Assembly: GCA_000091205.1 (NCBI GenBank)
Contig: AP006493.2
DNA: 64,000 bases
Strand: one strand, 5' to 3'
DNA from: Cyanidioschyzon merolae
Lineage: Eukaryota
Positions within the stretch are counted from its first letter, which is position 1, and every line of letters starts with the position of its first letter. Below are positions 8,720 to 30,100 of the stretch, one piece after another. The notes below the pieces were generated by a model. The model made no database searches. It was not told where the DNA came from and worked only from the letters and a program-made list of their open reading frames with translations. A program made the translations under genes and the position numbers.

Positions 8720-8989
8720 ACGCCGTTCTAAACTCGAACGACGCCGACCGTGTACCGTAGTGGCGACGACAGCGCCCTAGACAAGAAGTCTCCGATTGAC
8801 GTGCAGACGCCCCCTCGCCTTTTGGACCGGCCAACTACTACTGCTTCAAACTTTTTCTCATATAGTTCGACTTTGAGAGGTTGTCCAACAAAGTTCTGTC
8901 TTGTCCATGCTGGAGGTCTCGTCTCCAGCACCGCACATCTCCTGACATTGATTTTTTTCATTGACAAAACGTTTACTTAGCCTATCGTT

Positions 8990-11900
8990 CTCCGATTGTG
9001 CGCTAGTTCTTTTCTTACTTTTTTGTTTTTTTCAGTGCGAGGTGAGATATCCATCAACCCCCTACCTCCAAGTTACGCTACCCAGAATTTTCCTCGGATA
9101 TTCTGGTCGTTTCATACGTCCTATCGTGTGTGCCTAGTACCTGCAGTTCCGTATCCGCCTCTGGGCCTGAACCGCTGGAGCAGATAATTCATAGAGACAG
9201 AACGGCGTTGCCGTACCACAGAGGGCGTCAGCTCGAGGCGTGGTTCACCCGGCGTAGAATCGGGTCTCATTGTCTGTCTGTGCTCGGACAGTCTGCGGAT
9301 GCAGGCTTGTCTTCGCTGCACGACACGCTGGAGAAACTTGGCTGTTAGGATATATCCTGGGAGCCGCCTCTCTCCTTCGTGATCATGCATGGAGTGCGTT
9401 GTTGTCGGTTGGCAATGCGGGTTTCTGCTTGACACCCACCACAGTGGGTAGACGCAGAAAGCGCACTGAGCCCGTGTGCGCATCCGATTCGCTGGACCCT
9501 TCTTTCTAGAAGGTAGCATGTGAGTTTGTTCGCCACTAATGAGCGCTGAGGCTCCGTTAGCGGGCCATCAGTTGCCAGTGCTACACTCAAAGTGTGTGTC
9601 CGGCCTTTGGCTATCAAGGTGATGCCCAGCTGCTGCTGTCCTCCAAGGAGCTCGCTGCGCTCGTGTTTCCAGCGCGGGCACTGTAAGCCTAACTATGTCA
9701 GCGTCTCGGGGTTCTCGTTTCCACAGCAGGGACAGTGTGACTCCCAGTGCGATTCCAGTGTTCCTATGCGGCTTAGAGCCGGTGCTGGTAGCCAGAAGCC
9801 ACCAACGCGCATTTTGGCCAGCCACTGGGTACCTCGAGCAAGTCCCGGGAACTCCAGCGTCTCCCACCAGTGCTTGCATGTGTATGCTAGGTTGTAGTTC
9901 CGGTATAGAGTCAAGCCGGCGTTACTCGCGCGACTGGTACCGTGTCTACGTTCCCATATTGGTGTTTGGACCTTTCGCTTCAGGTGACGGGAGAATTCTA
10001 TATTTCTGGGGAACGATTGGGTAGCGTGTTTTCGCCTGAGAGGCGCTTCACCGAAATCTGCGTCGATTTCATCCAAGTGTTCTTGCGGTGGGTTGGGGTC
10101 TTCATGAAACTCCGACTGAACCAGGTGCGCATAGTGGGCCCTTTGGCCCGTATACATGCCCGGCAGCCTGCTGCTATCGCTTATATCGAGAGTATTTGGA
10201 GTTCAAGTCCGAGTGTCAGCGGGTTGGTCGCTCTGCTCTGCACTGAGCATCCAACAACAACAACGAGTCGCATTGCCCTGTTGGCGGCTGTCTGCAGACG
10301 TGAGGCATTTGGGTGCTTCATGCCGCACCATTCAGCACCCCAGGTCGCAGGCTGGATGATACACATCCTTAGTGCGCTGGTACGGATTGCTATGCAGATA
10401 GAGGGGTCGGATAAGAATGGGCCTGCGATCGCTATACGTCTATGCATCTTGGCGATCATCTCGTCGATGTGTGCCTTTTCGTCGAGCGTCGGCGTGAGAC
10501 AGACCCCCGGGTAGCGATCTTTTTCCACGATTGGAATTTCCTGATTCTGCAACCGCCACGAGCGATTGCGAATGCTCTGCGAGTCTCCATGGATGACCAT
10601 GACGCCGCACTTCGATGCTCCTATGCTCATCTCTCAGCGATCGGTCCAGGCGCTGACTTGTTCCATGCTACCCGCAAGCGTTTCCGGGGCGGGTGCCAAC
10701 AGCACGACATCGTCCGCAACTAGACGGCCTGCGAGGCGGTTTCTATGTGAGGGCTCCTCACCGGACATCTCCACAGTCTATCCACGGCGCCTCAGCCGCG
10801 AATTGTCTGCAGTTGTTCAGCAGATCGTTGATGAAGATGTTGAAAAGGAGCGGGGATGCGGGGTCGCCCTGTCGCAGTCCACGGTGGATTCTTATGGAAG
10901 GGGTTCTTGAGCAGTCGCCCAGTCGGATGCGCATCCATGAGTCTGCATAGAGCGCACGGAAGAACGCTAAGCACTTTCCGGAGACTCCGGCTCGTTCCAT
11001 CTTCAGAAATGGAGCCTCGTGCGGGACCGTGTCCAAGGCCTTTTGAAAGTCGGTGAAGCATACGTAAGCTGGTTGTTGGCCGCTAATCGAGCAACGTTGC
11101 ACCACTTCAGTTAGGGTCAGGGTATGGCTCATGCACTCCTCGTGGCTCCGGAATCCAGCCTGTTCTGGGGCGAAGAACTTGCGTTCCTGGAGGCCTCTCT
11201 GGATCCGGTTCGTGGGAATGGCGCAAAGTAGCTTCATGATTGACGGGATGAGGCGCATAGTCCGGTAGATGTTCATGTCTGTGTGGGAGTCCTTTTTGAG
11301 GATCGGTACGACCTCGGCAGTCCTCCGTACATCTGGGATGCACGCTTCTTCAAACATGCGTTGAATGAGCTCCAGAAGGCGTTTGCATAAGATTGTGTCA
11401 GGTTCATCTGGTATCGATAGTGTCCCTGTTGTCCCGTCTTTTGGGGTCGCCAGTTTCATCCACTCCGCCGCGATGCCGCCGATGCCAGGTGTTTTGCGGT
11501 TGCTTGAGCATAGCAGGGTCCGAACAGATTCAGGCCAGAAGATTGGGTCGTTCCATTCCGGTACCGGTTCGAGGCGCCGTAGTTCTGCAGCATATTGGTG
11601 CCGATAGATTCGGTTTTGGCAGTGCCCAGTTGCGTCTTCATGCAGCTCTGGCCCGTGGTCCGTCCAGGCCTCATTCACTGAGGCACTCTCCGTCCTCAGC
11701 GCTTCCTCATAAACGATTGGTGTGAGCCCCAAGCACTTTTTCGGTGGGTCGAGTCTCGATCGAATGTAGCCTGGGGTTTCATCTTCGCTGGTGCTCTCTA
11801 GCATAGATTTCGCCAGGGCGGCGATTTTGCGGCTTCGATCCTCTCGTTTGTCTTCTCTGGAAAGTTTCTTCTTTTTTTTGATAGCTTCTTCATGTTGCGC

Positions 11901-15904: not shown

Positions 15905-18900
15905 ATGTCACGAAAGCCATCCCATGGCAGCTTTTGCTGCGGCTGATCGCTTTTCCTCTCTCTTAGCTCCGGGCTGGAATACGCCGGTCTCTACTTTCTT
16001 TCCAGCACTGTTGTAGGCTGTCGAGGGATGCTAATCGCGGCGTTGGGGTCGCAGTTTCACAGGTTCCGGCAGTTGCCTGCGTATTCGATGTACAGGCGGA
16101 GGTTGCGATTGACGGATCGCTTGCCGTTTTCTTCGTTTCCTAGAATTCAGTACTGGTGCGCGCCTCGTAGCGGTTAACCTGGTTGTGTTCAGATATTCCC
16201 GTATGTGTTCACGAGCTCGCATTCCCTGGGAGCCGACCTGCAGCATGCGAGCGCTTGCTGCATCCCTCCGTAGCTGTCGTTGACGGGTACAGAAGGCTCT
16301 ACGCGATGCCTTGCTCCGTTTTCGCGCCCAGTGCTGTGCCCCGTGATCATGCACTTGCTCTTCTGGACGACTTCTTGTGCGAGTGCGCTGCCCGCTGCAC
16401 TCGCAAGCGCACGCTATTCCATTCGGTACCTCAACAACCGATTCCTTGTGCGCTCTTGCTTTCCTGCGTTCCCTTCCCACAAACTGTGCAGATGAGCGTG
16501 ACGGGCCATCAGGTCCGATTGTGCCACATGCTTGTGATAATGCCGCCAAGGCTACTGGGACTCTCTCCTGTCTCACTCGTTTGCGCGTCGGACGAGTGCC
16601 TCACTCGCTCACCGTCCGCTTAGGCGAACATATGAGGTACTCGAGTCCAAGCTACGACTTTGAGCGGGAATCGGCGTGTTCGAGACTCGCGGCTCCAGTG
16701 CGTCGTCGGTGACCACAGGCAAGTCGGGCATCCCTTCGGATCTCGCAATCATCGTGAAGGTTCAGGGACCCGGTCTCTTTGGGTCCAAGTTGAGGCCGAT
16801 CGCATTGGGGAGCAAGTTCGCGCCGCCGCGCATCCCAGTTGTTCGTTGTTCATCCACACATTTCCCCCTCTAACCAGGGTGCATCTGCACCCTGACGATT
16901 CTTCAGTCGTATAGAGCGTTCGCGCTTGACGGCGATGGACACACTCGCGCTATCGGAAGCGAACGACGACTCTACTTCTCCTGTTGGAAGCGCGAAGCTC
17001 CGGTTCCTCCGGTCTCCCTTCGCCTCCGCGCCCTCCTGCGCGCTCCGTCGCTTCTCGCTCGTCAAGCGGTTCATGAGTTTCTTCGAATCTTCGGGTGCGG
17101 GCGCATAGTTCGCTGTCTGGGCTTGCACCTAGCGATCAGCCTCTCTTCCTCTTCCTCGACACACTTGTTCTCCATCGGACGCATCTGCGTAACCCTCGCG
17201 CGGCGTCACGATCCACGACAAAGCGAAAAAGTGTGCTTGCTGGCAGTGCCACGAGCCACGGAGACGTGCGTTCGTAAAAGCCGCGTACTCCTCCCCTGAC
17301 GGAGGCTCTGGACCGGCACGCTGGGTGCAGACGCGCCATCGCATTCGTGGGTGCGTTAGTCGCATGCGACAGGTCCATCTTCGAGACAACGTCCTCGTCG
17401 CGAAGGGCCAGATGACGGACATTCATCATGGTCTCCCAATCCTTCGAGCCGACTGGCTGCAATGAAGCGTCGGTCATGAAGAGCTCCTTCATACCGCCCA
17501 TGCCGGTCGCCGAGTCGTCGCACTTTCGCCTCCACCCCATAGAATCTTTCACGTGCCGGTGGAGGTGTATGCTCACCCTTCTCAGCGTCACTGTGCGTAT
17601 CATTCCCCGTACCCATTCGTATTATCTGGGGCGCTTTGAGTCACCAAGCGAGAGAGGCCCTCGACGCTCCCAATGCTGTCCAGCTTGGGAGCCGACGTCC
17701 GTGCGTCGCCGATGAAGGCTAGTTGCGGGTCAAGTCTGCCTGGTGCGCACTCGGGGACAACTAGGACGAAAAGCTTATCGGTGTCAGCTGCGCTTCTACA
17801 AAGTGCTGGACGTTTCCAAAGACCTCGGCACACTCGAAGCACGCGGACTTGAGTTTGAGGCAAGCGTGTCGCCGGAGCTTGCTGCAAAGAACCACCAGGT
17901 ACATGTCGCGTGCCACGTGTTCCGGTGGGAGCACGCACGTTCCAAGCTGGCACTGAACGACCGCCGTTTCCGGCAGTAACGATGAGCGCCGCTCCTCGTC
18001 CGTGAACACACCCAAGCGAAGCGTTCCGTTCAGGAAACCGCCCCGTCCGAGACTGGCGAGCTCGTCTGGAAGCGGTACGCATCTCTTTTCGTTACGCTCT
18101 TGGACGATTTTCGTCCAACTACACAGTCGTTTCTCTGAGACCTCTCGTGTGCGGCGGTTGTGTGCCTCCGTCGATAAGCATGCCGTATAACTAAAGTATT
18201 TATACCTTGTTTTTCTCTTCGTACTACTTCGGAATTCCACGAACCGCAATCGTCAGCGAGTTTCCCTATACAAACTCCAACAGGTCCATTGGTCTGAACG
18301 GCAGTTCCTCGAGCACTGGGCATCAGTTCGTGTCGAGAGCGAGCCGCGTTATCCCGAAGCGTGCATCGGCCTCTCTGAGGCTGCGTTTGACGGCCCCGCA
18401 ACCGTTCTCCATCGGTTTGAAACACAGAGCATAAGCTGGTGTGTGCGTGTGCAGGATGACCAATGCCCGCTCTTTGCTGTTTGCCGAATAGAAGGGAATT
18501 CGTGGAACGCGTTGCTGTCTATGATGAAACACGCAGTGGCTGGAGTGGAACTCCAGATTCGCGACGCAGCGTAGAAACGTCGATCCGTCGGCGCTCCTGC
18601 CGTGCCGCTAAGCGATGACGCACTTGCCACCGGAATCCATCGCTGCGATGACTGCAGTCCGCGTCCAGCACCCTTTCCCATGCGAACAGAAGAGACGCGA
18701 GCCTCTGGGAGCGGATCCCACGGGCGGGAATGTGGTTGTGGTGGTGGTGCTGCTGCTCCTGCTGCTGCTGCTGATTTCGGGTCCCTTCTCTTCGATGGCC
18801 ACGGAGCGGGCTGGAATTGTCTTTCGGGCGGGATCGATTGCTTAACGTGACGAGCTCATTGAGCTTTCGGCGGGAGCGTGTGGAGAAGTCACCAAGGGAT

Positions 18901-19293
18901 GGCGCCGCGCTCCTTTTCTCGTCGGGTCGGCAGCGCGAATCGTTGCGCCTACGAGTTGCGTCGCGACTGAAATGACGAAAACTCGAAGAATACGTGATTC
19001 GAGCGTGATAGACGTAAGGAAAGGAGGAGCGTGGCGGTCACTCACATGAACAGGACGGTGATATCGAATATTTTTTTGAAATCTTTTTTTAGGACGCCGC
19101 ATTTCGTCTTGATTCCAGAGCCGTAACGAGCTGCAGTTGTGAAGCATTGAACGAGCCATTGCGAAAAGACAACCTAGAGTCGGAGAACGGACCGTGAATC
19201 CGAAATTCCTTATTATTGGACTTTGAACGTCTAGGATGTGTATCTATAAATTTTCAGGAGGAAATTGAAAGATAGAAACATGTCGAACCGCTT
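15905..19293. repeat. inverted-repeat arm A (~3.39 kb), ~99% identical to the reverse complement of 26708..30100; non-coding dispersed element
   Basis: Every ORF in this arm has a mirror-image twin on the opposite strand of the other arm, with 0-2 aa differences (for example 17136..17603(-) versus 28403..28870(+)). Boundaries were found by direct comparison of the reverse-complement sequence. It contains a (GTG/GCT)n microsatellite at ~18722-18790. The longest ORF is 181 aa, basic, with no domain. Confidence 0.9.
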
Positions 19294-19945
19294 AGTGCTT
19301 TATTTCCAGATGACGCGAACGTTGGAATGCGCAGTGCAGCGCACGGAGAGCCGCGCCTGCGCACCGATTGCCTGCTGCGCTCGGTGACGTGTCTAGCACG
19401 CATCGCGCTCTTTGCACGCATCTCGGCGCATGCGTGTAACATAACATTTGCACGCTTGTTGTTGCGTAAAACTTCCGTTTTAAAGTTGTTTTTCTATTTT
19501 TGGAGTTCCTTGCTTGGGCGATGCGTTGCTCTGAACATGAAAAACTGGCAAGAATTTCAGGTATTTTGGTCGACCCACGTTTATCGCGAACGTGGGTCAC
19601 GAAACGCTCGCGACGAGTGCGTGGTACGGCCCGAGGTAACGTGCGACACAGAACGTACAGCAGTGGTGTGTTGCACTGGTTTGGTTGAGTTGTTTCGGCA
19701 ATTTCTGTCCTTAATCGTTTGCGCCAGGCATCTCGGGCCTCTTGGCGTCTATCTTTAGAAATATGCTTTCACACGGGAAACTGAACTTCGCTTGAACAAA
19801 AACAGCGCTTTCAATGCTGAAAAAGCTGCTCGAGGCGCTTTGCTTTGTTTCCTCGGTACCTCGGTAAGATTTTCTTATCCTTAGACTAGTTCACCCAAAC
19901 TTCATGGTGGTTGCTGGCTGGGGGCCGATCATCTTTCAAGGCGGA

Positions 19946-21229
19946 CTACGAGTCTTTCCTTGTCACTGGATTCATACCTGTTACGGAATTGCCGCCGCCG
20001 CTGCCCATTGGGCCGCCAGAGTTTTGCCCACCGAGGCCACCTCCAGTACCAGATCCGCTAGACATATCCGGTGCGTTCGGACGGGTCGGTGGTGCTTGCG
20101 TTTGCGGTGGTGGTGGTGGTGTAGGCTGCTTCGGTGGCGCCAATATGGGAGCCTGTGGTGCTGTAGGCCCATCCCCATTCATCATTTGTTGCCCATTTCT
20201 GGGGCCGTTGCCGCCACCGCTGCCTATTGATCCGCCAGAGTTTTGCCCACCGAGGCCACCTCCAGTACCGGATCCGCTAGACATATCCGGTGCGTTCGGA
20301 CGGGTCGGTGGTGCTTGCGTTTGCGGTGGTGGTGGTGGTGTAGGCTGCTTCGGTGGCGCCAATATGGGAGCCTGTGGTGCTGTAGGCCCATCCCCATTCA
20401 TCATTTGTTGCCCATTTCTGGGGCCGTTGCCGCCACCGCTGCCTATTTGTGCGCCAGAGTTTTGCCCACCGAGGCCACCTCCAGTACCAGATCCGCTAGA
20501 CCCGTCCAGCAGATTTGGCTGAGGCTGTGGTGTGTGCTGATGTGGTGGTGGTGTTGGCGGCTTCGGTTGCGTTGGTGTTGGAGCCTGTGGCGCTGTAGCC
20601 CCGTTCTCATTCATCATTTGTTGCCCATTTCTGGGGCCGTTGCCGCCACCGCTGCCTATTTGTGCGCCAGAGTTTTGCCCACCGAGGCCACCTCCAGTAC
20701 CAGATCCGCTAGACCCGTCCAGCAGATTTGGCTGAGGCTGTGGTGTGTGCTGATGTGGTGGTGGTGTTGGCGGCTTCGGTTGCGTTGGTGTTGGAGCCTG
20801 TGGCGCTGTAGCCCCGTTCTCATTCATCATTTGTTGCCCATTTCTGGGGCCGTTGCCGCCACCGCTGCCTATTTGTGCGCCAGAGTTTTGCCCACCGAGG
20901 CCACCTCCAGTACCAGATCCGCTAGACCCGTCCAGCAGATTTGGCTGAGGCTGTGGTGTGTGCTGATGTGGTGGTGGTGTTGGCGGCTTCGGTTGCGTTG
21001 GTGTTGGAGCCTGTGGCGCTGTAGCCCCGTTCTCATTCATCATTTGTTGCCCATTTCTGGGGCCGTTGCCGCCACCGCTGCCTATTTGTGCGCCAGAGTT
21101 TTGCCCACCGAGGCCACCTCCAGTACCAGATCCGCTAGACCCGTCCAGCAGATTCGGCTGAGGCTGTGGTGTGTGCCGATGTGGTGGTGGTGTCGGCGGC
21201 TCCGTAGTCGGTGTAGGCGGCTTAGTCAT
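19946..21229 (-). CDS. mucin-like glycoprotein, C-terminal repetitive part (Gly/Pro/Gln-rich 71-73-aa repeats), likely a continuation of 21222..22382
   Basis: Begins 'MTKPPTPTTEPPTPPP', which continues the PT repeat. It then carries ~5.5 copies of the unit 'GSSGSGTGGGLGGQNSG.QIGSGGGNGPRNGQQMMN..G.TAPQAP...PPTPPP'. Confidence 0.55.
   Translation of the reverse strand: MTKPPTPTTEPPTPPPHRHTPQPQPNLLDGSSGSGTGGGLGGQNSGAQIGSGGGNGPRNGQQMMNENGATAPQAPTPTQPKPPTPPPHQHTPQPQPNLLDGSSGSGTGGGLGGQNSGAQIGSGGGNGPRNGQQMMNENGATAPQAPTPTQPKPPTPPPHQHTPQPQPNLLDGSSGSGTGGGLGGQNSGAQIGSGGGNGPRNGQQMMNENGATAPQAPTPTQPKPPTPPPHQHTPQPQPNLLDGSSGSGTGGGLGGQNSGAQIGSGGGNGPRNGQQMMNGDGPTAPQAPILAPPKQPTPPPPPQTQAPPTRPNAPDMSSGSGTGGGLGGQNSGGSIGSGGGNGPRNGQQMMNGDGPTAPQAPILAPPKQPTPPPPPQTQAPPTRPNAPDMSSGSGTGGGLGGQNSGGPMGSGGGNSVTGMNPVTRKDS
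20016..21170. repeat. tandem minisatellite, unit 213-219 bp, ~5.5 copies (coding)
   Basis: 'ctccagtacc' recurs at 20041 and 20260 (219-bp spacing) and at 213-bp spacing further downstream. There are two unit subtypes. Confidence 0.85.
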
Positions 21230-21595
21230 TGGCGTTGGCGGCTCCGTAGTCGGTGTTGGCGGCTTCGTAGTCGGCGTTGGCGGCTTCGTAGTCGGTGTCG
21301 GCGGCTTCGTAGTCGGCGTTGTCGTGCCTAGTCGTCGGTGTCGGCGGCTTAGTAGTCGGCGTAGGCGGCTTAGTAGTCGGTGTAGGCGGCTTAGTAGTCG
21401 GCGTAGGCGGCTTAGTAGTCGGCGTAGGCGGCTTAGTAGTCGGCGTAGGCGGCTTAGTAGTCGGTGTAGGCGGCTTCGTAGTCGGTGTAGGCGGCTTAGT
21501 AGTTGGCGTCGGCGGCTTCGTAGTCGGTGTAGGCGGCTTAGTCGTCGGTGTTGGCGGCTTAGTCGTTGGCGTCGGCGGCTTAGTCGTCGGCGTTA
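21190..21595. repeat. tandem repeat, 21-bp unit (ggcggcttNgtagtcggYgtN), ~19 copies, encoding (PTTKPPT)n on the minus strand
   Basis: Direct reading of the sequence. The antisense frames give the spurious 'VGVGGLVVG' and 'RRLSSRRRRLSS' ORFs. Confidence 0.9.
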
Positions 21596-22382
21596 ATGTT
21601 GGTGTCGGCGTTGGTATTATTGTAATCGGTGGCATTGGTGTCGGTATCTGCGTAGTAGTCGGCGTTGGAGGTATCGTTGGCTTGACTATTATGATCGTTG
21701 GTGTTTGCGTTGGTGTTTGAATGGAAAATACCTCCTGATGACATACACGTTTCACTTCTTTGCAGATGATTGTACAAGCTGGCTGAGCGGGGCTCTTCGA
21801 CGCAACAGTTCCCTGAACTTTTCCCAGAGTAGTCTTCTGTGGTGTGCTAGGTATCCACCTATCCGAAACTGGAACCTTCCCTGATACGTCCTTCTGTGGT
21901 CCAAACACCAACGAGCACTTTTCCTCTGCTGTGAAGCTTTCAACGCACACTCGACAGATATTCTTCAGTGCATACATCTCGCACACTGTTTGGTTCTTAT
22001 AGATGCATTTCTGGTAACAGTCATTTGGAGCATGAACTGGCACGTTCCCTTTCCTCACATTTGTGTATCCTTCTGTCCTTGCATTCTTTGAAAGCCCATA
22101 CTTTTCCTTGGGCGAGGCGTTCTCGAAGTTCGAGCTCGCTGGACAAATCCAGACTTTCTTCTCACAGACTTTCACTACTGCCTCTTCAATGCAGACTTGC
22201 TCCAGACGGCAGTCTTCGATCGTGATCAAAGGCTGGCAGTAGTCCAGGTTGCGTTGGAGCGAGTTTCGTGCCGGCGAAACTTCGCTCCAAGTTTCTCGTT
22301 GGATACCATTGGTAAGCACAGCGCTGTTTAGGTACAAAAGAATGAGCAGCCAAAAGATCCCAACTGAAACAAAGCTTCTCAT
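21222..22382 (-). CDS. secreted mucin-like surface glycoprotein, N-terminal part: signal peptide, Cys-rich domain and (PTTKPPT)n repeats
   Basis: N-terminus 'MRSFVSVGIFWLLILLYLNSAVL' is a signal peptide. It is followed by a ~200-aa Cys-rich region, then ~19 copies of the 7-aa 'PTTKPPT' repeat. It overlaps the next ORF (19946..21229) in a different frame, so this is probably one gene with a real or sequencing frameshift. Confidence 0.65.
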   Translation of the reverse strand: MRSFVSVGIFWLLILLYLNSAVLTNGIQRETWSEVSPARNSLQRNLDYCQPLITIEDCRLEQVCIEEAVVKVCEKKVWICPASSNFENASPKEKYGLSKNARTEGYTNVRKGNVPVHAPNDCYQKCIYKNQTVCEMYALKNICRVCVESFTAEEKCSLVFGPQKDVSGKVPVSDRWIPSTPQKTTLGKVQGTVASKSPAQPACTIICKEVKRVCHQEVFSIQTPTQTPTIIIVKPTIPPTPTTTQIPTPMPPITIIPTPTPTLTPTTKPPTPTTKPPTPTTKPPTPTTKPPTPTTKPPTPTTKPPTPTTKPPTPTTKPPTPTTKPPTPTTKPPTPTTKPPTPTTKPPTPTTRHDNADYEAADTDYEAANADYEAANTDYGAANAND

Positions 22383-23799
22383 GGCTAACGAGCTTCTATT
22401 CTCAGAGAATGATGTACCCTTCCAAGTTCAGCAATATGTTTTCGTTATGAACTAAAATCCTGAGGTCAAAAACTCTGTGTTACCGTTGTCCACGGCCCAA
22501 GTCTATTAGGACTGAAAACAAAAAAAAAGATATGTGGTAGTGAGCGCCCCGGTGGTGAAGTAGAGACCTGCATCAGCTCGTTACCGCATAAAGTGCGGTA
22601 ATTCTCGCAACGCACGACATCGCGCGACAACGAATGAGGTATCCGCGACATGCACAGGGGTGCAACGATGAGTCTGCACCGTACGTAATGCCGATCTACG
22701 TCAAATGGATGGCTTTCGTTCCATGAAAATGATCTCATGCGCGTCGTTCATCGCACAGAATGCATCGCACAGAATGCATCGCACAGAATGCATCGCACGC
22801 GAGCGCCGGCGACGCGAATCGCGCGTGCTCCGCCTCGATGACACGTAGCTTATCGTTTTTACCGCACGCACGCTTGACCGCGAAATACCGTTGAGCAGGC
22901 CTCCGAATCGGGTGCGTATTTGACGCAAACTTGGACCGGCGCACAGATATTTGCACTTCTATCAAACCTTGCCCCTTAACTGCATTCCATCTCCAGGTGC
23001 AGAGATTCTGATGCGTTTTCGCGATTTGTAGCAGACGCGTTCGAAGTGCGATCGGTTCAAAAATAGAAAACATTGCAAAGGTACGGTATGGACACAGAAG
23101 TCGGGGATTCTGGAGGGCTCTCATCGCCAGCTGGTGGAAACAAAAGCCCCCGTCTCGTCGACCAACGCGGAATTTACGGATCTTGATCTTTGCAGCGTCG
23201 TTAGCTTGCTCTGAAACGTAGGCCCCAGCCTTTGGACAGCAAGCGAGGTTGCAGGCCGAATGCATCACTTGCGACCTGCTGTACTTTTGCCTGCCGATGT
23301 GCTGGTAGCGCCCCTCGACACTTGTTTAGAACGAAAAGCTGTGAGTGATTTCTCAGACAGTGCGCCCAAATTTTCCCTTCGCTAGGACACCGTCAATCAT
23401 AGTATAGGACTGAACGGAGCTGTTTCTATCAAAGGAATCGATATTCTATCACCAGTTTTTGGTAATAATGCTAGAAATGATAAAAATTTTAACGGAATCG
23501 CGAGCCGTCACGTAATTCACGGTTCTGTGCTCTGACCGAGGCTCGTGTACACCCGCAAAAGCTGTATGTATTTGTATCGTGATAGAATCAATCGACGTGC
23601 GATCACGTGCAAGAGGCTTCTCAGAAAATGGATTGCCGAATAGTGAATAAAGGATTCGCAATGGGGTAGCACCGGTGGCATCGCACAACCGGGATATCAA
23701 GAGAACGCCTTTCACGGAATAGAGAAAAGCTGCTGTTACGTGGTACTTTATATTGATTCACGAAATCTGCGTCACGAGAGGGAAACGTTGTCTAGTTTC

Positions 23800-24624: not shown

Positions 24625-25701
24625 CTATATGAGAGTGACGATGGAGCTCACCGCGCTCAAGGGCGCCGACGGCGAGGCTACCGAAATCGATGGGCTTGTG
24701 CTCGGTGAGACGGAGGAGCTTATAGAGGTCGTCGCGCTCACGGACACCGACGGCGAAGCTACCGAAATCGATGAACTTGTGCTCGGTGAGACAGAGGAGC
24801 TTATAGAGGTCGTCGCGCTCACGGACACCGACGGCGACGCTACCGAAATCGATGGGCTTGTGCTCGGTGAGACGGAGGAGCTTACGGAGGCCGTCGCGCT
24901 CACGGACACCGACGGCGAAGCTACCGAAATCGATGGGCTTGTGCTCGGTGAGACAGAAGTGCTTATGGAGATAGTCGCGCTCACAGTCGCCGATGGCGAA
25001 ACGCTTCTTGACACTGTTGCTGACGGAGAGGCAGATGGTAGCAGTGTAGGCTGCACAGTCGGAGTCGGAAGGAAAGTGCCGATGATTACGTTCCTGCATT
25101 GCTTTCCGCTGAACAGACATTCATACTGACAGTTTCCATTTTGCTGTTGATACGACTGCCCCCAGCGCTTTGATACCGGATCGGAACCATCCAATGTCCG
25201 TTGAACCACAGTATCGCAAACTTCCACAAGCTCGTAATTCGTCCTGCATGCTGTGCACACATTTGCCGTGCGATACTCTACACAGGTTTGCTCGCCGAAA
25301 GACAAGCAGTCACCACATCCGCTATATTGATTTTGCCTCCAACGCAGCACCTTGAAATCTTTCGAGTCGAATCCCGCCAAACCCTGATTTTCTTTGGTAG
25401 CTTCACGGCCGAGCGTCTGGCTGCCGTGACCACTGCCAATCTCAGCAGAGGAGCGTAGCGTACATGCCGTGCCTGTGAGAGAACAGCTTCCGTTGACAAT
25501 CACTTTCGTGCATACGTTCTGCAGGGTGCAGTTATGCAGCGAAGAAGACGAGGGGCACACATAAACACTGTTTCCACCGCTCGTATACCAACGCCTTTCC
25601 GCTGGCCTCGCTGCTAGTACAGAGTCCACTCGCACTGCGTTCGTGAACAGAAGGAGCAACAAAACCGCCAAGGAATGTGTACGGAGCGCGTTATGAATCA
25701 T
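24625..25701 (-). CDS. secreted Ser-rich repetitive cell-surface protein (signal peptide, Cys-rich domain, S/P/T/V 28-aa repeats, hydrophobic C-terminus, possible GPI anchor)
   Basis: N-terminus 'MIHNALRTHSLAVLLLLLFTNAVRVDSVLA', then a ~200-aa Cys-rich region, then 4-5 copies of 'SVSPSTSPSISVASPSVSVSATTSISSS'. It ends '...SAVSSIVTLI'. Confidence 0.65.
   Translation of the reverse strand: MIHNALRTHSLAVLLLLLFTNAVRVDSVLAARPAERRWYTSGGNSVYVCPSSSSLHNCTLQNVCTKVIVNGSCSLTGTACTLRSSAEIGSGHGSQTLGREATKENQGLAGFDSKDFKVLRWRQNQYSGCGDCLSFGEQTCVEYRTANVCTACRTNYELVEVCDTVVQRTLDGSDPVSKRWGQSYQQQNGNCQYECLFSGKQCRNVIIGTFLPTPTVQPTLLPSASPSATVSRSVSPSATVSATISISTSVSPSTSPSISVASPSVSVSATASVSSSVSPSTSPSISVASPSVSVSATTSISSSVSPSTSSSISVASPSVSVSATTSISSSVSPSTSPSISVASPSAPLSAVSSIVTLI
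24650..25010. repeat. tandem repeat, 84-bp unit, ~4.3 copies (coding)
   Basis: The antisense + strand ORF shows the matching 28-aa periodicity 'LTDTDGEATEIDGLVLGETEELIEVVA'. Confidence 0.85.
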
Positions 25702-26707
25702 CCTGTATAGCCCCCTTGAGGTTGTTGAAGAACAACAATATTATTTTGAATATTTCCGGACGAAATTCTTTTTTGAGTGCTATGCACGGGGATGATGCAC
25801 GGATTCGCGCATCTGCGGACAGCGATTTTCCCGCCAACTTCAATTTCGCGAACGATTGATTACGTTCGCGCCAAATCGAACCGCTGCGCACCATACGATT
25901 GCGACGCTCGTATCCTTAAACATGCTGGAACGCTAGTCGCGCAAGCTCAGCTTTCCCGGGCAGTTATGCGAATTAAAACAGTTCCGACACGCTTTGGATA
26001 GAGTACCATTAGTCTTGTCACGTTGCAATAACGACTTGAGGCGTAAAACATGGATCATTGTAGCGGGGTGCTACCCTCGAGCGTCGGCGCCAGAGTAAGC
26101 CTCTGATCCTGAATAGGGTGTACAAGAGAAGATGCGAGCTCGCAAGTGCGAAGTAGCCAGTTCTATTGCACGTCGCAGATGCGTCCAGCGTGTGCGAATT
26201 GTCGATCGGGCAAGAGGGCAGGCGTCATAGCGACCGCATACGGATATTCGAAATCTATAGGGCATCGGTTCCGACCTGCTTTGGTATATAGATATTTTGA
26301 ACTTCTGCATGTACGTTATTTGGCGTATACACTGAAGACTTCTGTCGTGGAAAATTTTAAACCTCGTACGCTTAGGCTTGCGTCTCTCAAATCGGTGTGG
26401 CGAGGTGAAGGCCTCAAATAAATGTAGGTTTACGCATTCTTTTGCTCAACAAGGACCTGGCATCCAAATCATTAATTTCATATATTGAGAAATTTCTCAG
26501 AGAATGTATGTGAACGCCTCGCCCTATTGCCTTAAAAGACAGCTATTTGGCGACATGTCGTATGCGTGTTAACGAGGCGCTGAATATTGACAGCGCAAGA
26601 TCGCCTGCCAGAGCACCACAGGACTCTAGATATCCGAATCTAAAGTGCAATTTCTACTCAGTATAAAGAGCATTGGTGCAGTCTCTAAAGAAACTAGTTA
26701 TGATGGA

Positions 26708-29700
26708 GCACTAAGCTGTTCGACATGTTTCTATCTCTCCATTTCCTCCTGAAAATTTATAGATACACATCCTAGACGTTCAAAGTCCAATAATAAGGAA
26801 TTTCGGATTCACGGTCCGTTCTCCGACTCTAGGTTGTCGTTTCGCAATGGCTCGTTCAATGCTTCACAACTGCAGTTCGTTACGTCTCTGGAATCAAGAC
26901 GAAATGCGGCGTCCTAAAAAAAGATTTCAAAAAAATATTCGATATCACCGTCCTGTTCGTGTGAGCGACCCCCACGCTCCTCCTTTCCTTACGTCTATCA
27001 CGCTCGAATCACGTATTCTTCGAGTTTTCGTCATTTCAGTCGCGACGCAACTCGTAGGCGCAACGATTCGCGCTGCTGACCCGACGAGAAAAGGAGCGCG
27101 GCGCCATCCCTTGGTGACTTCTCCACACGCTCCCGCCGAAAGCTCAATGAGCTCGTCACGTTAAGCAATCGATCCCGCCCGAAAGACAATTCCAGCCCGC
27201 TCCGTGGCCATCGAAGAGAAGGGACCCGAAATCAGCAGCAGCAGCAGGAGCAGCAGCACCACCACCACAACCACATTCCCGCCCGTGGGATCCGCTCCCA
27301 GAGGCTCGCGTCTCTTCTGTTCGCATGGGAAAGGGTGCTGGACGCGGACTGCAGTCATCGCAGCGATGGATTCCGGTGGCAAGTGCGTCATCGCTTAGCG
27401 GCACGGCAGGAGCGCCGACGGATCGACGTTTCTACGCTGCGTCGCGAATCTGGAGTTCCACTCCAGCCACTGCGTGTTTCATCATAGACAGCAACGCGTT
27501 CCACGAATTCCCTTCTATTCGGCAAACAGCAAAGAGCGGGCATTGGTCATCCTGCACACGCACACACCAGCTTATGCTCTGTGTTTCAAACCGATGGAGA
27601 ACGGTTGCGGGGCCGTCAAACGCAGCCTCAGAGAGGCCGATGCACGCTTCGGGATAACGCGGCTCGCTCTCGACACGAACTGATGCCCGGTGCTCTAGGA
27701 ACTGCCGTTCAGACCAATGGACCTGTTGGAGTTTGTATAGGGAAACTCGCTGACGATTGCGGTTCGTGGAATTCCGAAGTCGTACGAAGAGAAAAACAAG
27801 GTATAAATACTTTAGTTATACGGCATGCTTATCGACGGAGGCACACAACCGCCGCACACGAGAGGTCTCAGAGAAACGACTGTGTAGTTAGACGAAAATC
27901 GTCCAAGAGCGTAACGAAAAGAGATGCGTACCGCTTCCAGACGAGCTCGCCAGTCTCGGACGGGGCGGTTTCCTGAACGGAACGCTTCGCTTGGGTGTGT
28001 TCACGGACGAGGAGCGGCGCTCATCGTTACTGCCGGAAACGGCGGTCGTTCAGTGCCAGCTTGGAACGTGCGTGCTCCCACCGGAACACGTGGCACGCGA
28101 CATGTACCTGGTGGTTCTTTGCAGCAAGCTCCGGCGACACGCTTGCCTCAAACTCAAGTCCGCGTGCTTCGAGTGTGCCGAGGTCTTTGGAAACGTCCAG
28201 CACTTTGTAGAAGCGCAGCTGACACCGATAAGCTTTTCGTCCTAGTTGTCCCCGAGTGCGCACCAGGCAGACTTGACCCGCAACTAGCCTTCATCGGCGA
28301 CGCACGGACGTCGGCTCCCAAGCTGGACAGCATTGGGAGCGTCGAGGGCCTCTCTCGCTTGGTGACTCAAAGCGCCCCAGATAATACGAATGGGTACGGG
28401 GAATGATACGCACAGTGACGCTGAGAAGGGTGAGCATACACCTCCACCGGCACGTGAAAGATTCTATGGGGTGGAGGCGAAAGTGCGACGACTCGGCGAC
28501 CGGCATGGGCGGTATGAAGGAGCTCTTCATGACCGACGCTTCGTTGCAGCCAGTCGGCTCGAAGGATTGCGAGACCATGATGAATGTCCGTCATCTGGCC
28601 CTTCGCGACGAGGACGTTGTCTCGAAGATGGACCTGTCGCACGCGACTAACGCACCCACGAATGCGATGGCGCGTCTGCACCCAGCGTGCCGGTCCAGAG
28701 CCTCCGTCAGGGGAGGAGTACGCGGCTTTTACGAACGCACGTCTCCGTGGCTCGTGCCACTGCCAGCAAGCACACTTTTTCGCTTTGTCGTGGATCGTGA
28801 CGCCGCGCGAGGGTTACGCAGATGCGTCCGATGGAGAACAAGTGTGTCGAGGAAGAGGAAGAGAGGCTGATCGCTAGGTGCAAGCCCAGACAGCGAACTA
28901 TGCGCCCGCACCCGAAGATTCGAGGAAACTCATGAACCGCTTGACGAGCGAGAAGCGACGGAGCGCGCAGGAGGGCGCGGAGGCGAAGGGAGACCGGAGG
29001 AACCGGAGCTTCGCGCTTCCAACAGGAGAAGTAGAGTCGTCGTTCGCTTCCGATAGCGCGAGCGTGTCCATCGCCGTCAAGCGCGAACGCTCTATACGAT
29101 TGAAGAATCGTCAGGGCGCCGATGCACCCTGGTTAGAGGGGAAAATGTGCGGATGAACAACGAACAACTGGGATGCGCGGCGGCGCGAACTTGCTCCCCA
29201 ATGCGATCGGCCTCAACTTGGACCCAAAGAGATCGGGTTCCTGAACCTTCACGATGATTGCGAGATCCGAAGGGATGCCCGACTTGCCTGTGGTCACCGA
29301 CGACGCACTGGAGCCGCGAGTCTCGAACACGCCGATTCCCGCTCAAAGTCGTAGCTTGGACTCGAGTACCTCATATGTTCGCCTAAGCGGACGGTGAGCG
29401 AGTGAGGCACTCGTCCGACGCGCAAACGAGTGAGACAGGAGAGAGTCCCAGTAGCCTTGGCGGCATTATCACAAGCAGGTGGCACAATCGGACCTGATGG
29501 CCCGTCACGCTCATCTGCACAGTTTGTGGGAAGGGAACGCAGGAAAGCAAGAGCGCACAAGGAATCGGTTGTTGAGGTACCGAATGGAATAGCGTGCGCT
29601 TGCGAGTGCAGCGGGCAGCGCACGCGCACAAGAAGTCGTCCAGAAGAGCAAGTGCATGATCACGGGGCACAGCACTGGGCGCGAAAACGGAGCAAGGCAT

Positions 29701-30100
29701 CGCGTAGAGCCTTCTGTACCCGTCAACGACAGCTACGGAGGGATGCAGCAAGCGCTCGCATGCTGCAGGTCGGCTCCCAGGGAATGCGAGCTCGTGAACA
29801 CATACGGGAATATCTGAACACAATCAGGTTAACCGCTTTGAAGCGCGCACCAGCACTGAATTCTAGGAAACGAAGAAAACGGCAAGCGATCCGTAAATCG
29901 CAACCTCCGCCTGCACATCGAATACGCAGGCAACTGCCGGAACCTGTGAAACTGCGACCCCAACGCCGCGATTAGCATCCCTCGACAGCCTACAACAGTG
30001 CTGGAAAGAAAGTAGCGACCGGCGTGTTCCAGCCCGGAGCTAAGAGAGAGGAAAAGCGATCAGCCGCAGCAAAAGCTCCCATGGGATGGCTTTCATGACT
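26708..30100. repeat. inverted-repeat arm B (~3.39 kb), reverse complement of 15905..19293
   Basis: See arm A. The mirrored ORF set (26847..27164, 27156..27404, 27924..28406, 29430..29975 and others) matches it. Microsatellite at ~27232-27290. Confidence 0.9.

Follow-up and report, generated by a model that had tools for sequence, protein, structure and literature searches.

Secreted mucin-like (PTS-domain) glycoproteins, together with the PRP and GRP wall proteins of algae or plants, are among the closest described counterparts of CMK168C from Cyanidioschyzon merolae, which has a signal peptide, a Cys-rich globular end, a long Pro/Thr array, and a Gly-rich block. The variation of repeat copy number between strains, at both CMK168C and CMK170C, is a further mucin-like trait. 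However, CMK168C has no sequence or Pfam relationship to the mucin, extensin, and GRP families, no Ser-Pro3-5 motifs, and no membrane or GPI anchor. The reading frame of the gene is also broken in the 10D sequence, and two other systems offer comparisons. The ACU-AGG-C of CMK168C, a heptamer of the form NNU-AGG-C with a rare AGG and a +1 shift, resembles the +1 site of yeast Ty1 and of ABP140 (CUU-AGG-C). It differs in that the P-site codon is ACU instead of CUU, and in that the frameshift is absent from a related strain (L015, described below). In CMO228C/Tic236, a single-base indel in the published 10D sequence likewise breaks an otherwise continuous ORF (PMC7291098). That case was settled by resequencing as a reference discrepancy, whereas CMK168C carries an insertion plus two substitutions in a tandem repeat.

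The window, the whole stretch of 64,000 nucleotides analyzed here, derives from chromosome 11 of C. merolae 10D; three of its proteins that we tested are identical to 10D BAM80537.1, BAM80538.1, and BAM80539.1. CMK168C, a hypothetical protein of 386 aa, corresponds to the minus-strand ORF at 21222–22382, and its annotated form (BAM80538.1) includes an out-of-frame tail identical to the translation of the window. A second ATG-initiated minus-strand ORF, encoding 427 aa, lies at 19946–21229. Both ORFs had been proposed in a sequence-only reading of the window and were confirmed, and the two plus-strand ORFs antisense to the repeats that it listed (20243–21331 and 21319–21720) do exist. The RNA-seq-based reannotation of 2026, in which variants were not re-called, kept the 386-aa model. 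With RNA-seq from both life phases, it annotated no separate gene between CMK166C and CMK168C, and the expression of CMK168C was weak in both phases, at 11–22 TPM (PMC13353863). An exact look-up of the 427-aa Gly/Pro ORF showed it to be absent from the protein collection, and a literature search for CMK168C or the PTTKPPT motif returned no mention.

The start codon and signal peptide of CMK168C lie at 22311–22382 on the minus strand (as do all gene features below), with an approximate cleavage region. Of all 19-residue windows in the protein, only the one at the N-terminus is strongly hydrophobic (Kyte-Doolittle 2.17 at residue 5), and SignalP-5.0 lists CMK168C as SP(Sec/SPI) (Data Set S8, PMC13353863). 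The Cys-rich N-terminal domain that follows (21723–22244, residues about 47–220) holds 14 cysteines. The signal peptide and Cys-rich domain read earlier from the sequence were thus borne out. The designation as a "surface" protein was not: hydropathy analysis of the 811-aa conceptual protein detected no transmembrane or GPI-type hydrophobic segment beyond the signal peptide. The same conceptual protein contains no SPPP, the extensin Ser-Pro(3-5) motif.

CMK170C (24625–25701) is a tandem paralogue of CMK168C (BLASTP E = 1e-6). It too has a signal peptide and the Cys-rich N-domain, and 81-bp repeats at 24641–25045 encode its tail, which is rich in Ser, Pro, Thr, and Val. Its sequence is exactly that of BAM80539.1. 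Thirteen of the 14 cysteines of CMK168C align with CMK170C, and the remaining one, C122, lies next to a gap in that alignment. Conservation extends to all 14 in the alignment with a remote homologue, P0138, an uncharacterised metagenomic protein in which the same N-domain and PTS-rich and Gly/Ser-rich regions are encoded by a single 889-aa ORF. The three proteins share a signal peptide, an N-domain that spans about 175 residues and keeps its pattern of cysteines, and a tail of low-complexity tandem repeats. In contrast, their tails are unrelated in sequence, since that of CMK170C is built from the 81-bp Ser/Pro/Thr/Val repeats and that of P0138 from SPTTTSTS repeats, extra Cys modules, and a Gly/Ser-rich end. 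The frame break is found only in CMK168C. Expression differs as well, as CMK170C is diploid-specific (about 1,400–1,700 TPM versus 2–3, about 600-fold) and CMK168C is weakly expressed in both phases (PMC13353863). Because the paralogue is specific to the walled diploid phase, CMK168C and CMK170C probably constitute an extracellular-matrix protein family.

Within the 1.84 billion proteins that were scanned, the N-domain family is confined to Cyanidiophyceae. The CMK168C family has been grouped as OrthoFinder OG0000056 (PMC13353863); our N-domain search did not match its other members CMK153C and CMI046C. Both CMK168C and CMK170C lie on a 7.4-kb segment bordered by inverted repeats; Pfam scans of both ORFs, P0138, CMK170C, and the inverted-repeat-arm ORFs returned nothing relevant. 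A profile search of PDB sequences with the N-domain gave no match, and AlphaFold2 modeling of the domain from a two-sequence alignment yielded an unusable pLDDT of 35. The neighbor of GFAT (g1258) in Cyanidium caldarium is g1257, a signal-peptide-bearing member of OG0000056 (Data Set S9, PMC13353863). Orthologues named from that work are CdcalHa5_g1257 and CcyanHa1_g2950/g2960. The contigs of a relative with a 77% identical GFAT all end 0.5–2.8 kb past that gene.

The sequence and its translation show an irregular Pro/Thr/Ile-rich lead-in at 21594–21722, which is followed by the 21-bp array. Tandem-repeat detection placed this array at 21195–21593, with 19.0 copies and 86% matches. The number of copies agrees with the 19 PT units previously assigned to the signal-peptide frame, but their assignment to one frame does not hold. 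Unit alignment showed twelve intact units, all TPTTKPP, in the start-codon frame (frame A, 21342–21593), then one lesion unit, and then six further units at 21194–21319 (three TPTTKPP, two TPTTEPP, and one TPMTKPP) that yield the PT motif in frame B (+1) alone. The repeat is also not "perfect", as had been stated, with its units varying almost only at third codon positions. The 18 intact units vary at 7 positions, and 5 of these are third positions of PT-frame codons, both before and after the lesion; the twelve units upstream of the lesion vary at third positions exclusively. This pattern indicates that the downstream units evolved as coding sequence, in phase with the upstream units. The mucin-like features are an N-terminal signal peptide and 18 intact TPTT[K/E]PP-type units plus the lead-in, and Pro, Thr, and Ser together make up 66% of the 245 residues of the Pro/Thr region.

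The frame break maps inside the PT array, to the 22-nt unit at 21320–21341 (numbered unit 12), about 100 nt upstream of the PT/Gly-Pro boundary at which it had been placed. Alignment of this unit (ACA CCG ACG ACT AGG CAC GAC A) with its 21-nt neighbors revealed one inserted base and two substitutions, which convert CCG CCN to CAC GAC A, all within 7 nt. The 10D sequence AGGCACGACAACG spans 21315–21329 at the lesion, and a lesion-free alternative would read AGGCCGCC[G/T]AC[A/G]CCG. The 15-mer AGGCACGACAACGCC at the lesion unit occurs once in the window, and the site contains no homopolymer or short non-triplet tract. Past the lesion, frame A runs out of frame for 35 codons to a stop at 21222. 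This produces the tail (RHDNADYEAADTDYEAANADYEAANTDYGAANAND; 21222–21329 with the stop codon) of the annotated 386-aa CMK168C, in which the last six PT units read as ADYEAAN. The 10D-specific 24-mer at the lesion had 0 matches in JGI metagenome contigs, few of which span the array. We also predicted the k=31 unitig around the lesion (21125–21372), a 248-nt segment that is unique at this word length and whose partial products were without record in public run assemblies, and exact look-ups of the CMK168C and CMK170C gene positions were negative.

In frame B, an open stretch of 461 codons (21331 to 19946) covers the six PT units and the whole Gly/Pro block. The 8-bp overlap reported between the two ORFs is a product of starting the second ORF at its first ATG (21229), which is a T-to-M variant within one PT unit. 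The junction TPPPHRHTPQPQPNLLDG (21140–21193) connects the PT array to the Gly/Pro block without a break in frame B. Within the block, frame B is the sole stop-free frame of the six and also has the best codon-usage score. The 213-bp-period array (19989–21201; 5.6 copies, 95% matches) consists of three Gly/Pro/Gln/Asn-rich 213-bp units (71 aa each; 20501–21139) with 100% identical DNA, two 219-bp units (73 aa each; 20063–20500) of a second subtype with 4 differences between them, and, at the end, a partial unit (19946–20062) with a unique hydrophilic C-terminus (…GGGNSVTGMNPVTRKDS) and the frame B stop codon. The earlier derivation of the Gly/Pro units from 213/219-bp repeats is thereby upheld, but the satellites are not nested: the PT and Gly/Pro arrays are adjacent, and the 213- and 219-bp units are two subtypes of one family, each with a PT-like linker. 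Gly accounts for 23% of the block.

The Gly/Pro block shows no degeneration (three identical units, no stops), as would be expected if the lesion were very recent or did not exist. Its near-identical 213/219-bp units support a recent expansion or homogenisation of the block. The concerted evolution suggested for all the repeats is not supported for the PT units, among which synonymous sites have diverged. When the Gly/Pro ORF was used in a word-indexed homology search, no match appeared among at most 8,000 candidates, a list that low-complexity proteins probably filled. A back-translated scan for the block matched only the environmental contig L013, covering the 3' end. The BLASTP comparison with the Gly/Ser-rich end of P0138 was not significant, and the likeness of the two is architectural only.

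The frame at the lesion point was compared with that of L015, an independent ENA contig about 1% diverged from 10D. Starting at the same ATG, L015 has 357 stop-free codons that run through two ACT AGG CCG CCN units and into downstream-type units, which share the frame of the start codon. Its equivalent units are ACA CCG ACG ACT AGG CCG CCG/T, in frame, where 10D has ACT AGG CAC GAC A. The composition of the array differs, with at least two AGG units in L015 versus one in 10D, but the difference in frame is due solely to the 1-nt lesion and not to unit composition. The N-terminal region shows 4 substitutions in 789 nt against L015, and the flanking intergenic DNA is about 1.0–1.2% diverged, with 17 gap columns in 2,245 nt of intergenic DNA. 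CMK170C differs between the strains by three 81-bp units. L013 keeps the frame B stop codon and GMNPVTRKDS; its codon differences from 10D are 13 nonsynonymous and 2 synonymous, and it carries a 2-nt deletion in one Gly/Pro unit, observations that weigh against translation of the Gly/Pro block. Two other contigs were rejected as witnesses to the lesion, because the PT array folds back on itself at the end of L001 and L002 shows a rearrangement or chimeric join after codon 102.

Because L015 reads from the ATG through the lesion point in one frame, the ancestral gene would have been a single ORF of about 811 codons. The earlier proposal of one gene of some 800 codons, encoding a secreted PT-rich and Gly/Pro-rich protein, is upheld by the coding character of the PT units past the break, the single frame of L015, and the single 889-aa ORF of P0138. 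The ancestral product would have been a secreted, unanchored, mucin-like extracellular protein, comprising a signal peptide, a 14-Cys domain (presumably disulfide-bonded), a Pro/Thr stalk encoded by about 19 units of 21 bp, and a tail rich in Gly, Pro, Gln, and Asn to which the five and a half 213/219-bp units gave rise. The protein may be O-glycosylated and may act in the extracellular matrix or cell coat. In 10D, a complex lesion in one stalk unit would have shifted the frame by +1, so that the product ends after 386 aa at the stop at 21222, beyond which the final six PT units and all of the Gly/Pro block would remain untranslated.

We prefer, at about even chances, the explanation that this one gene, a fast-evolving and weakly expressed one for a matrix protein, carries a lesion that is real and belongs to the 10D lineage, a haploid clone without a wall that has long been kept in culture. 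A real lesion is plausible because the neutral DNA of 10D and L015 often differs by indels and CMK168C is weakly expressed. An appreciable but lesser probability belongs to the explanation that the extra base and the two nearby differences are an error of the 2004/2007 Sanger reference, in which case the true protein has about 811 aa and CMK168C is mis-annotated. The "assembly error" raised earlier is possible in this form, as a base-level reference error, since indels of this kind are documented in the published 10D sequence. Relative to the published nuclear genome, 288 SNPs and 81 indels are common to two 10D descendants, and these indels include the confirmed single-base deletion that falsely broke CMO228C/Tic236 (PMC7291098). 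The lesion lies in a GC-rich tandem array that is hard to finish, its three differences cluster in 7 nt and could represent a low-quality Sanger stretch, the downstream sequence is fully open and undegenerated, and L015, at about 1% divergence, is in frame. The absence of the lesion 24-mer from the JGI contigs points weakly in the same direction. On the other hand, the 10D reference was declared finished, two substitutions plus an inserted A are atypical of a GC-compression artefact, and the 386-aa model was retained in the reannotation, albeit with variants not re-called. Furthermore, we estimate that between-strain indels are about 300 times commoner per base than the reported reference discrepancies.

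The remaining explanations leave the 10D sequence as it stands and account for the second frame in other ways. Programmed +1 ribosomal frameshifting at ACU-AGG-C, by which one mRNA would yield a 386-aa majority and an 811-aa minority of the secreted matrix protein, is very unlikely. The required shift is exactly +1 at ACT AGG C, AGG is the rarest Arg codon in the window genes (7% of Arg), and the shifted reading carries the PT motif on seamlessly. The detailed scheme, in which a fraction of ribosomes would skip one base at the rare AGG to read …PTT-GTTT-PTTKPP… and most would terminate at 21222, is just as improbable. The tRNA-Thr is unable to re-pair on CUA, and in L015 no shift is required, because CCG CCN comes after ACT AGG in these units. 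The frameshift is therefore not conserved, and conservation is the chief mark of a programmed site. We consider it equally improbable that the Gly/Pro-rich protein is an independent gene product starting at the ATG at 21229, next to a 386-aa CMK168C. This ORF is ATG-initiated, and none of the other five frames scores as well as frame B in codon usage; but it would begin within a PT unit, without a signal peptide or promoter space, no gene is annotated there although both life phases were covered by RNA-seq, the databases contain no such protein, and the continuous frame of L015 assigns the upstream PT units to CMK168C. Removal of the break by an intron is more doubtful still. A GT at 21686 with AAG|CCG acceptors at 21305, 21284, and further downstream would join frames A and B in phase, but GTCAAG matches the strongly conserved C. 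merolae 5' splice site poorly. As the coding strand has no GT between 21686 and 21140, any intron would remove the entire PT array; L015 needs none, only 34 intron-containing genes were recognised after RNA-seq reannotation, and the CMK168C model was unchanged. The idea of a contingency locus, in which repeat copy-number changes toggle the frame of the Gly/Pro tail, is the one to which we give hardly any credence. It draws on the repeat-rich gene, on an array makeup that varies by strain (the AGG units), and on the 81-bp units of CMK170C. However, the units of 21, 213, and 219 bp (and of 81 bp) are all divisible by 3, so copy-number slippage cannot shift the frame, and the break comes from a change of other than repeat length in a single unit, where one nucleotide was inserted and two were substituted.

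The mechanism at CMK168C is nothing surprising, but C. merolae 10D is a widely used minimal model alga, whose gene models matter to many users. If the reference is in error, CMK168C is more than twice its annotated length. If the preferred explanation of a real lesion holds, the standard laboratory clone has a truncated allele of a matrix-protein gene that is intact in natural relatives. The locus defines a small Cyanidiophyceae-specific family that combines the 14-Cys N-domain with a variable low-complexity repeat tail. Because CMK170C, among the most strongly diploid-specific secreted genes, shows this expression, the family can reasonably be proposed as a component of the cell wall of the diploid phase, a recently discovered stage whose wall is acid-proof and consists largely of protein (PMC13353863). 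A tryptic peptide of the conceptual protein is NGQQMMNENGATAPQAPTPTQPK.

The CMK168C locus holds an ordinary gene for a repeat-rich secreted protein, with a reference model cut short by a one-base lesion; no new kind of system is involved. ORFs in the window encode eukaryotic domains (UBR4, GFAT, protein kinase, WD40), and three are identical to C. merolae 10D proteins: the GFAT ORF to BAM80537.1 (CMK166C), the 386-aa ORF at 21222-22382(-) to BAM80538.1 (CMK168C, 'hypothetical protein'), and the 358-aa ORF at 24625-25701(-) to BAM80539.1 (CMK170C). This places the locus on chromosome 11 of the 10D reference. Annotated CMK168C already contains the odd tail …RHDNADYEAADTDYEAANADYEAANTDYGAANAND.

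Tandem Repeats Finder delimited a 21-bp array (21195-21593, 19.0 copies, 86% matches) and an array with a 213-bp period (19989-21201, 5.6 copies, 95% matches), and the unit structure was obtained by cutting the minus strand into repeat units. Twelve intact 21-bp units, each encoding TPTTKPP, are in the start-codon frame. The lesion unit has 22 nt (ACA CCG ACG ACT AGG CAC GAC A; 21320-21341, minus strand), and the six units after it give the PT reading, TPTT[K/E]PP or TPMTKPP, in the +1 frame only. The PT-to-Gly/Pro junction on the same strand, TPPPHRHTPQPQPNLLDG, is unbroken in the +1 frame, which stays open for 461 codons from 21331 to the stop at 19946. The Gly/Pro block consists of three identical 213-bp units, two 219-bp units (four differing positions) and one partial unit, all on the minus strand.

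A frame break thus exists, as the sequence-only reading had stated, and the unit-by-unit reading places it inside the PT array, ~100 nt upstream of the PT/Gly-Pro boundary proposed there. The '8-bp overlap' of the two ORFs was a product of beginning the downstream 427-aa ORF (19946-21229(-)) at its first ATG, which is a Thr-to-Met variant of one PT unit. The long antisense ORFs were found as described. The 21-bp repeat, called perfect at the DNA level, is conserved in its peptide and not in its DNA, and concerted evolution fits the Gly/Pro block with its three identical units but not the PT array, which is not homogenised. A contingency switch driven by copy-number slippage was refuted: the units of 21, 213 and 219 bp are all multiples of three, so their gain or loss leaves the frame unchanged, and the break is a one-base insertion within one unit.

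Several observations supported the earlier proposal of a single ~800-aa protein. Among the 18 intact 21-bp units, five of the seven variable positions fall at third codon positions of the PT frame, a bias present on both sides of the lesion; the downstream units were therefore moulded as codons read in phase with those upstream. In the Gly/Pro block, the +1 frame alone is stop-free among the six frames and has the best codon-usage score, by a small margin. A 5,386-nt ENA contig from a strain ~1% diverged in intergenic DNA (L015; ERZ27247235) matches the window from 26950 to 21309 and carries an ORF that starts at the CMK168C ATG and stays stop-free over 357 codons. It contains nine TPTTKPP units and two TPTTRPP units (ACT AGG CCG CCG/T) and proceeds, in frame, to the 'ACT ACG AAG CCG CCA ACG' units, which 10D has out of frame. 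The AAG-to-AGG natural variant is common to these TPTTRPP units and the 10D lesion unit, which differs only in having CAC GAC A for CCG CCN (two substitutions plus the insertion of one base). The frame continuity in L015 is decisive for the two halves having been one ORF. When 1.84 billion proteins were scanned exhaustively by HMMER with the Cys-rich N-terminal domain (N-domain) of CMK168C, one remote homologue emerged, an uncharacterised 889-aa protein from a metagenome contig of 52.6% GC. It keeps 14/14 cysteines and continues, in one ORF, with PTS repeats, extra Cys modules and a Gly/Ser-rich end; the sequence similarity of this tail to the Gly/Pro block is not significant, so the homologue backs the architecture only.

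A lesion genuinely present in 10D is our preferred reading of the break, at about even odds. Indels between 10D and L015 are common in neutral DNA, far above the reported reference discrepancies, which supports a genuine lesion, as do the weak expression and fast evolution of CMK168C and the status of 10D as a long-propagated wall-less clone. An error in the published 10D reference is somewhat less likely. It would fit the 81 indels against the published sequence that are common to two 10D descendants, among them the CMO228C/Tic236 indel already recognised as a false frameshift (Sato et al. 2020, PMC7291098), as well as the position of the lesion within a GC-rich array, the crowding of three differences into 7 nt and the undecayed downstream sequence. 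A +1 programmed frameshift at ACU-AGG-C is a minor possibility: the sequence formally allows it, AGG is the rarest Arg codon and the PT motif carries on in the shifted reading, but L015 lacks the break. A separate Gly/Pro gene is also improbable, since it would be without a signal peptide, has no annotation at the site and would use an ATG that falls within a PT unit. An intron across the break was excluded in practice, as the coding strand has no GT between 21686 and 21140.

Between strains, the identity of the JGI metagenome contig L013 to 10D is 98.3% in the 3' flank but only 93.2% over the last 290 nt of the Gly/Pro block, with 13 nonsynonymous and two synonymous codon differences; the block is therefore hypervariable. 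The 13:2 ratio is compatible with neutrality, unit shuffling or diversifying selection. The stop codon and the GMNPVTRKDS sequence are conserved. L013 also has a 2-nt deletion at ~position 113 (window ~20232; GGCGCACAAATAGGC -> GGCACAAATAGGC), at the point where the Gly/Pro unit varies most, which breaks the +1 frame there and may be real or an artefact of collapsed-repeat assembly. Another JGI contig (L002, 1-2526) includes the 5' region of CMK168C, in which an 88-nt stretch occurs a second time, out of order, and past codon 102 it continues with ~1.9 kb that has no match in the window; the contig represents a rearranged allele or else an assembly chimera.

The conceptual 811-aa product contains 19.6% Pro, 14.4% Thr and 13.1% Gly. 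Its N-terminal signal peptide is the sole hydrophobic segment and its C-terminus is hydrophilic, so no membrane or GPI anchor is predicted. CMK168C was classified as secreted by SignalP-5.0, with 0 transmembrane segments by Phobius (Data Set S8, PMC13353863). Pfam and PDB searches found no relative of the protein, and the structure prediction of the N-domain (pLDDT 35) was too low for use. Substitutions relative to L015 amount to 0.5% in the N-domain and 1.0-1.2% in flanking intergenic DNA, consistent with a functional 5' part of CMK168C.

The adjoining CMK170C shares the N-domain (E=1e-6) and has an unlike tail, rich in Ser/Pro/Thr/Val and built from 81-bp repeats. In L015 (1249-2082), CMK170C has 277 aa, against 358 aa in 10D, exactly three 81-bp units fewer; either the copy number truly varies or the assembly has collapsed. 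Strain 10D is a wall-less haploid clone, and the diploid form of the alga is walled (Hirooka et al. 2026, PMC13353863); an earlier study, as cited there, puts the cyanidiophycean wall at about half protein. CMK170C is expressed at ~1,400-1,700 TPM in diploids versus 2-3 in haploids, and CMK168C is weak in both phases (~11 TPM in diploids, ~21 in MS1 haploids, ~14 in 10D) (PMC13353863). The OrthoFinder group of CMK168C also holds the strongly diploid-specific, secreted CMK153C and CMI046C together with Cyanidium and Cyanidiococcus genes, of which CdcalHa5_g1257 adjoins GFAT, like CMK168C (PMC13353863); CMK153C and CMI046C were not among the matches of our N-domain searches. The CMK168C product is most likely a secreted extracellular-matrix or cell-coat component, and the result is of use for annotation and for candidate wall/matrix proteins in Cyanidiophyceae.

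Some 370-420 bp before the CMK168C start codon, at 22749-22798, the 14-bp unit CATCGCACAGAATG is perfectly repeated in tandem (3.6 copies); the unit length is not divisible by three, but the array is outside the CDS. A ~290-nt stretch within the CMK170C-CMK168C intergenic region (~23.8-24.1 kb, via L015 2608-2896) has a 75% identical copy at 8952-9238 and may be a dispersed repeat. The only long repeat within the 64-kb window is a 3,393-bp inverted repeat with arms at 15907-19299 and 26707-30099 (40 mismatches, 0 indels, 98.8% identity), in which no annotated gene or Pfam domain was found. The arms enclose a 7,407-bp segment with exactly two paralogous secreted-protein genes, CMK168C and CMK170C, and could mediate its inversion. 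One inversion has been reported between the 10D and MS1 genomes (Hirooka et al., PMC13353863). In a related cyanidiophyte whose GFAT is 77% identical, 4/4 independent contigs (L003-L006) stop 0.5-2.8 kb downstream of GFAT, which suggests an assembly-breaking repeat where C. merolae has the inverted-repeat arm or the repeat-gene region.
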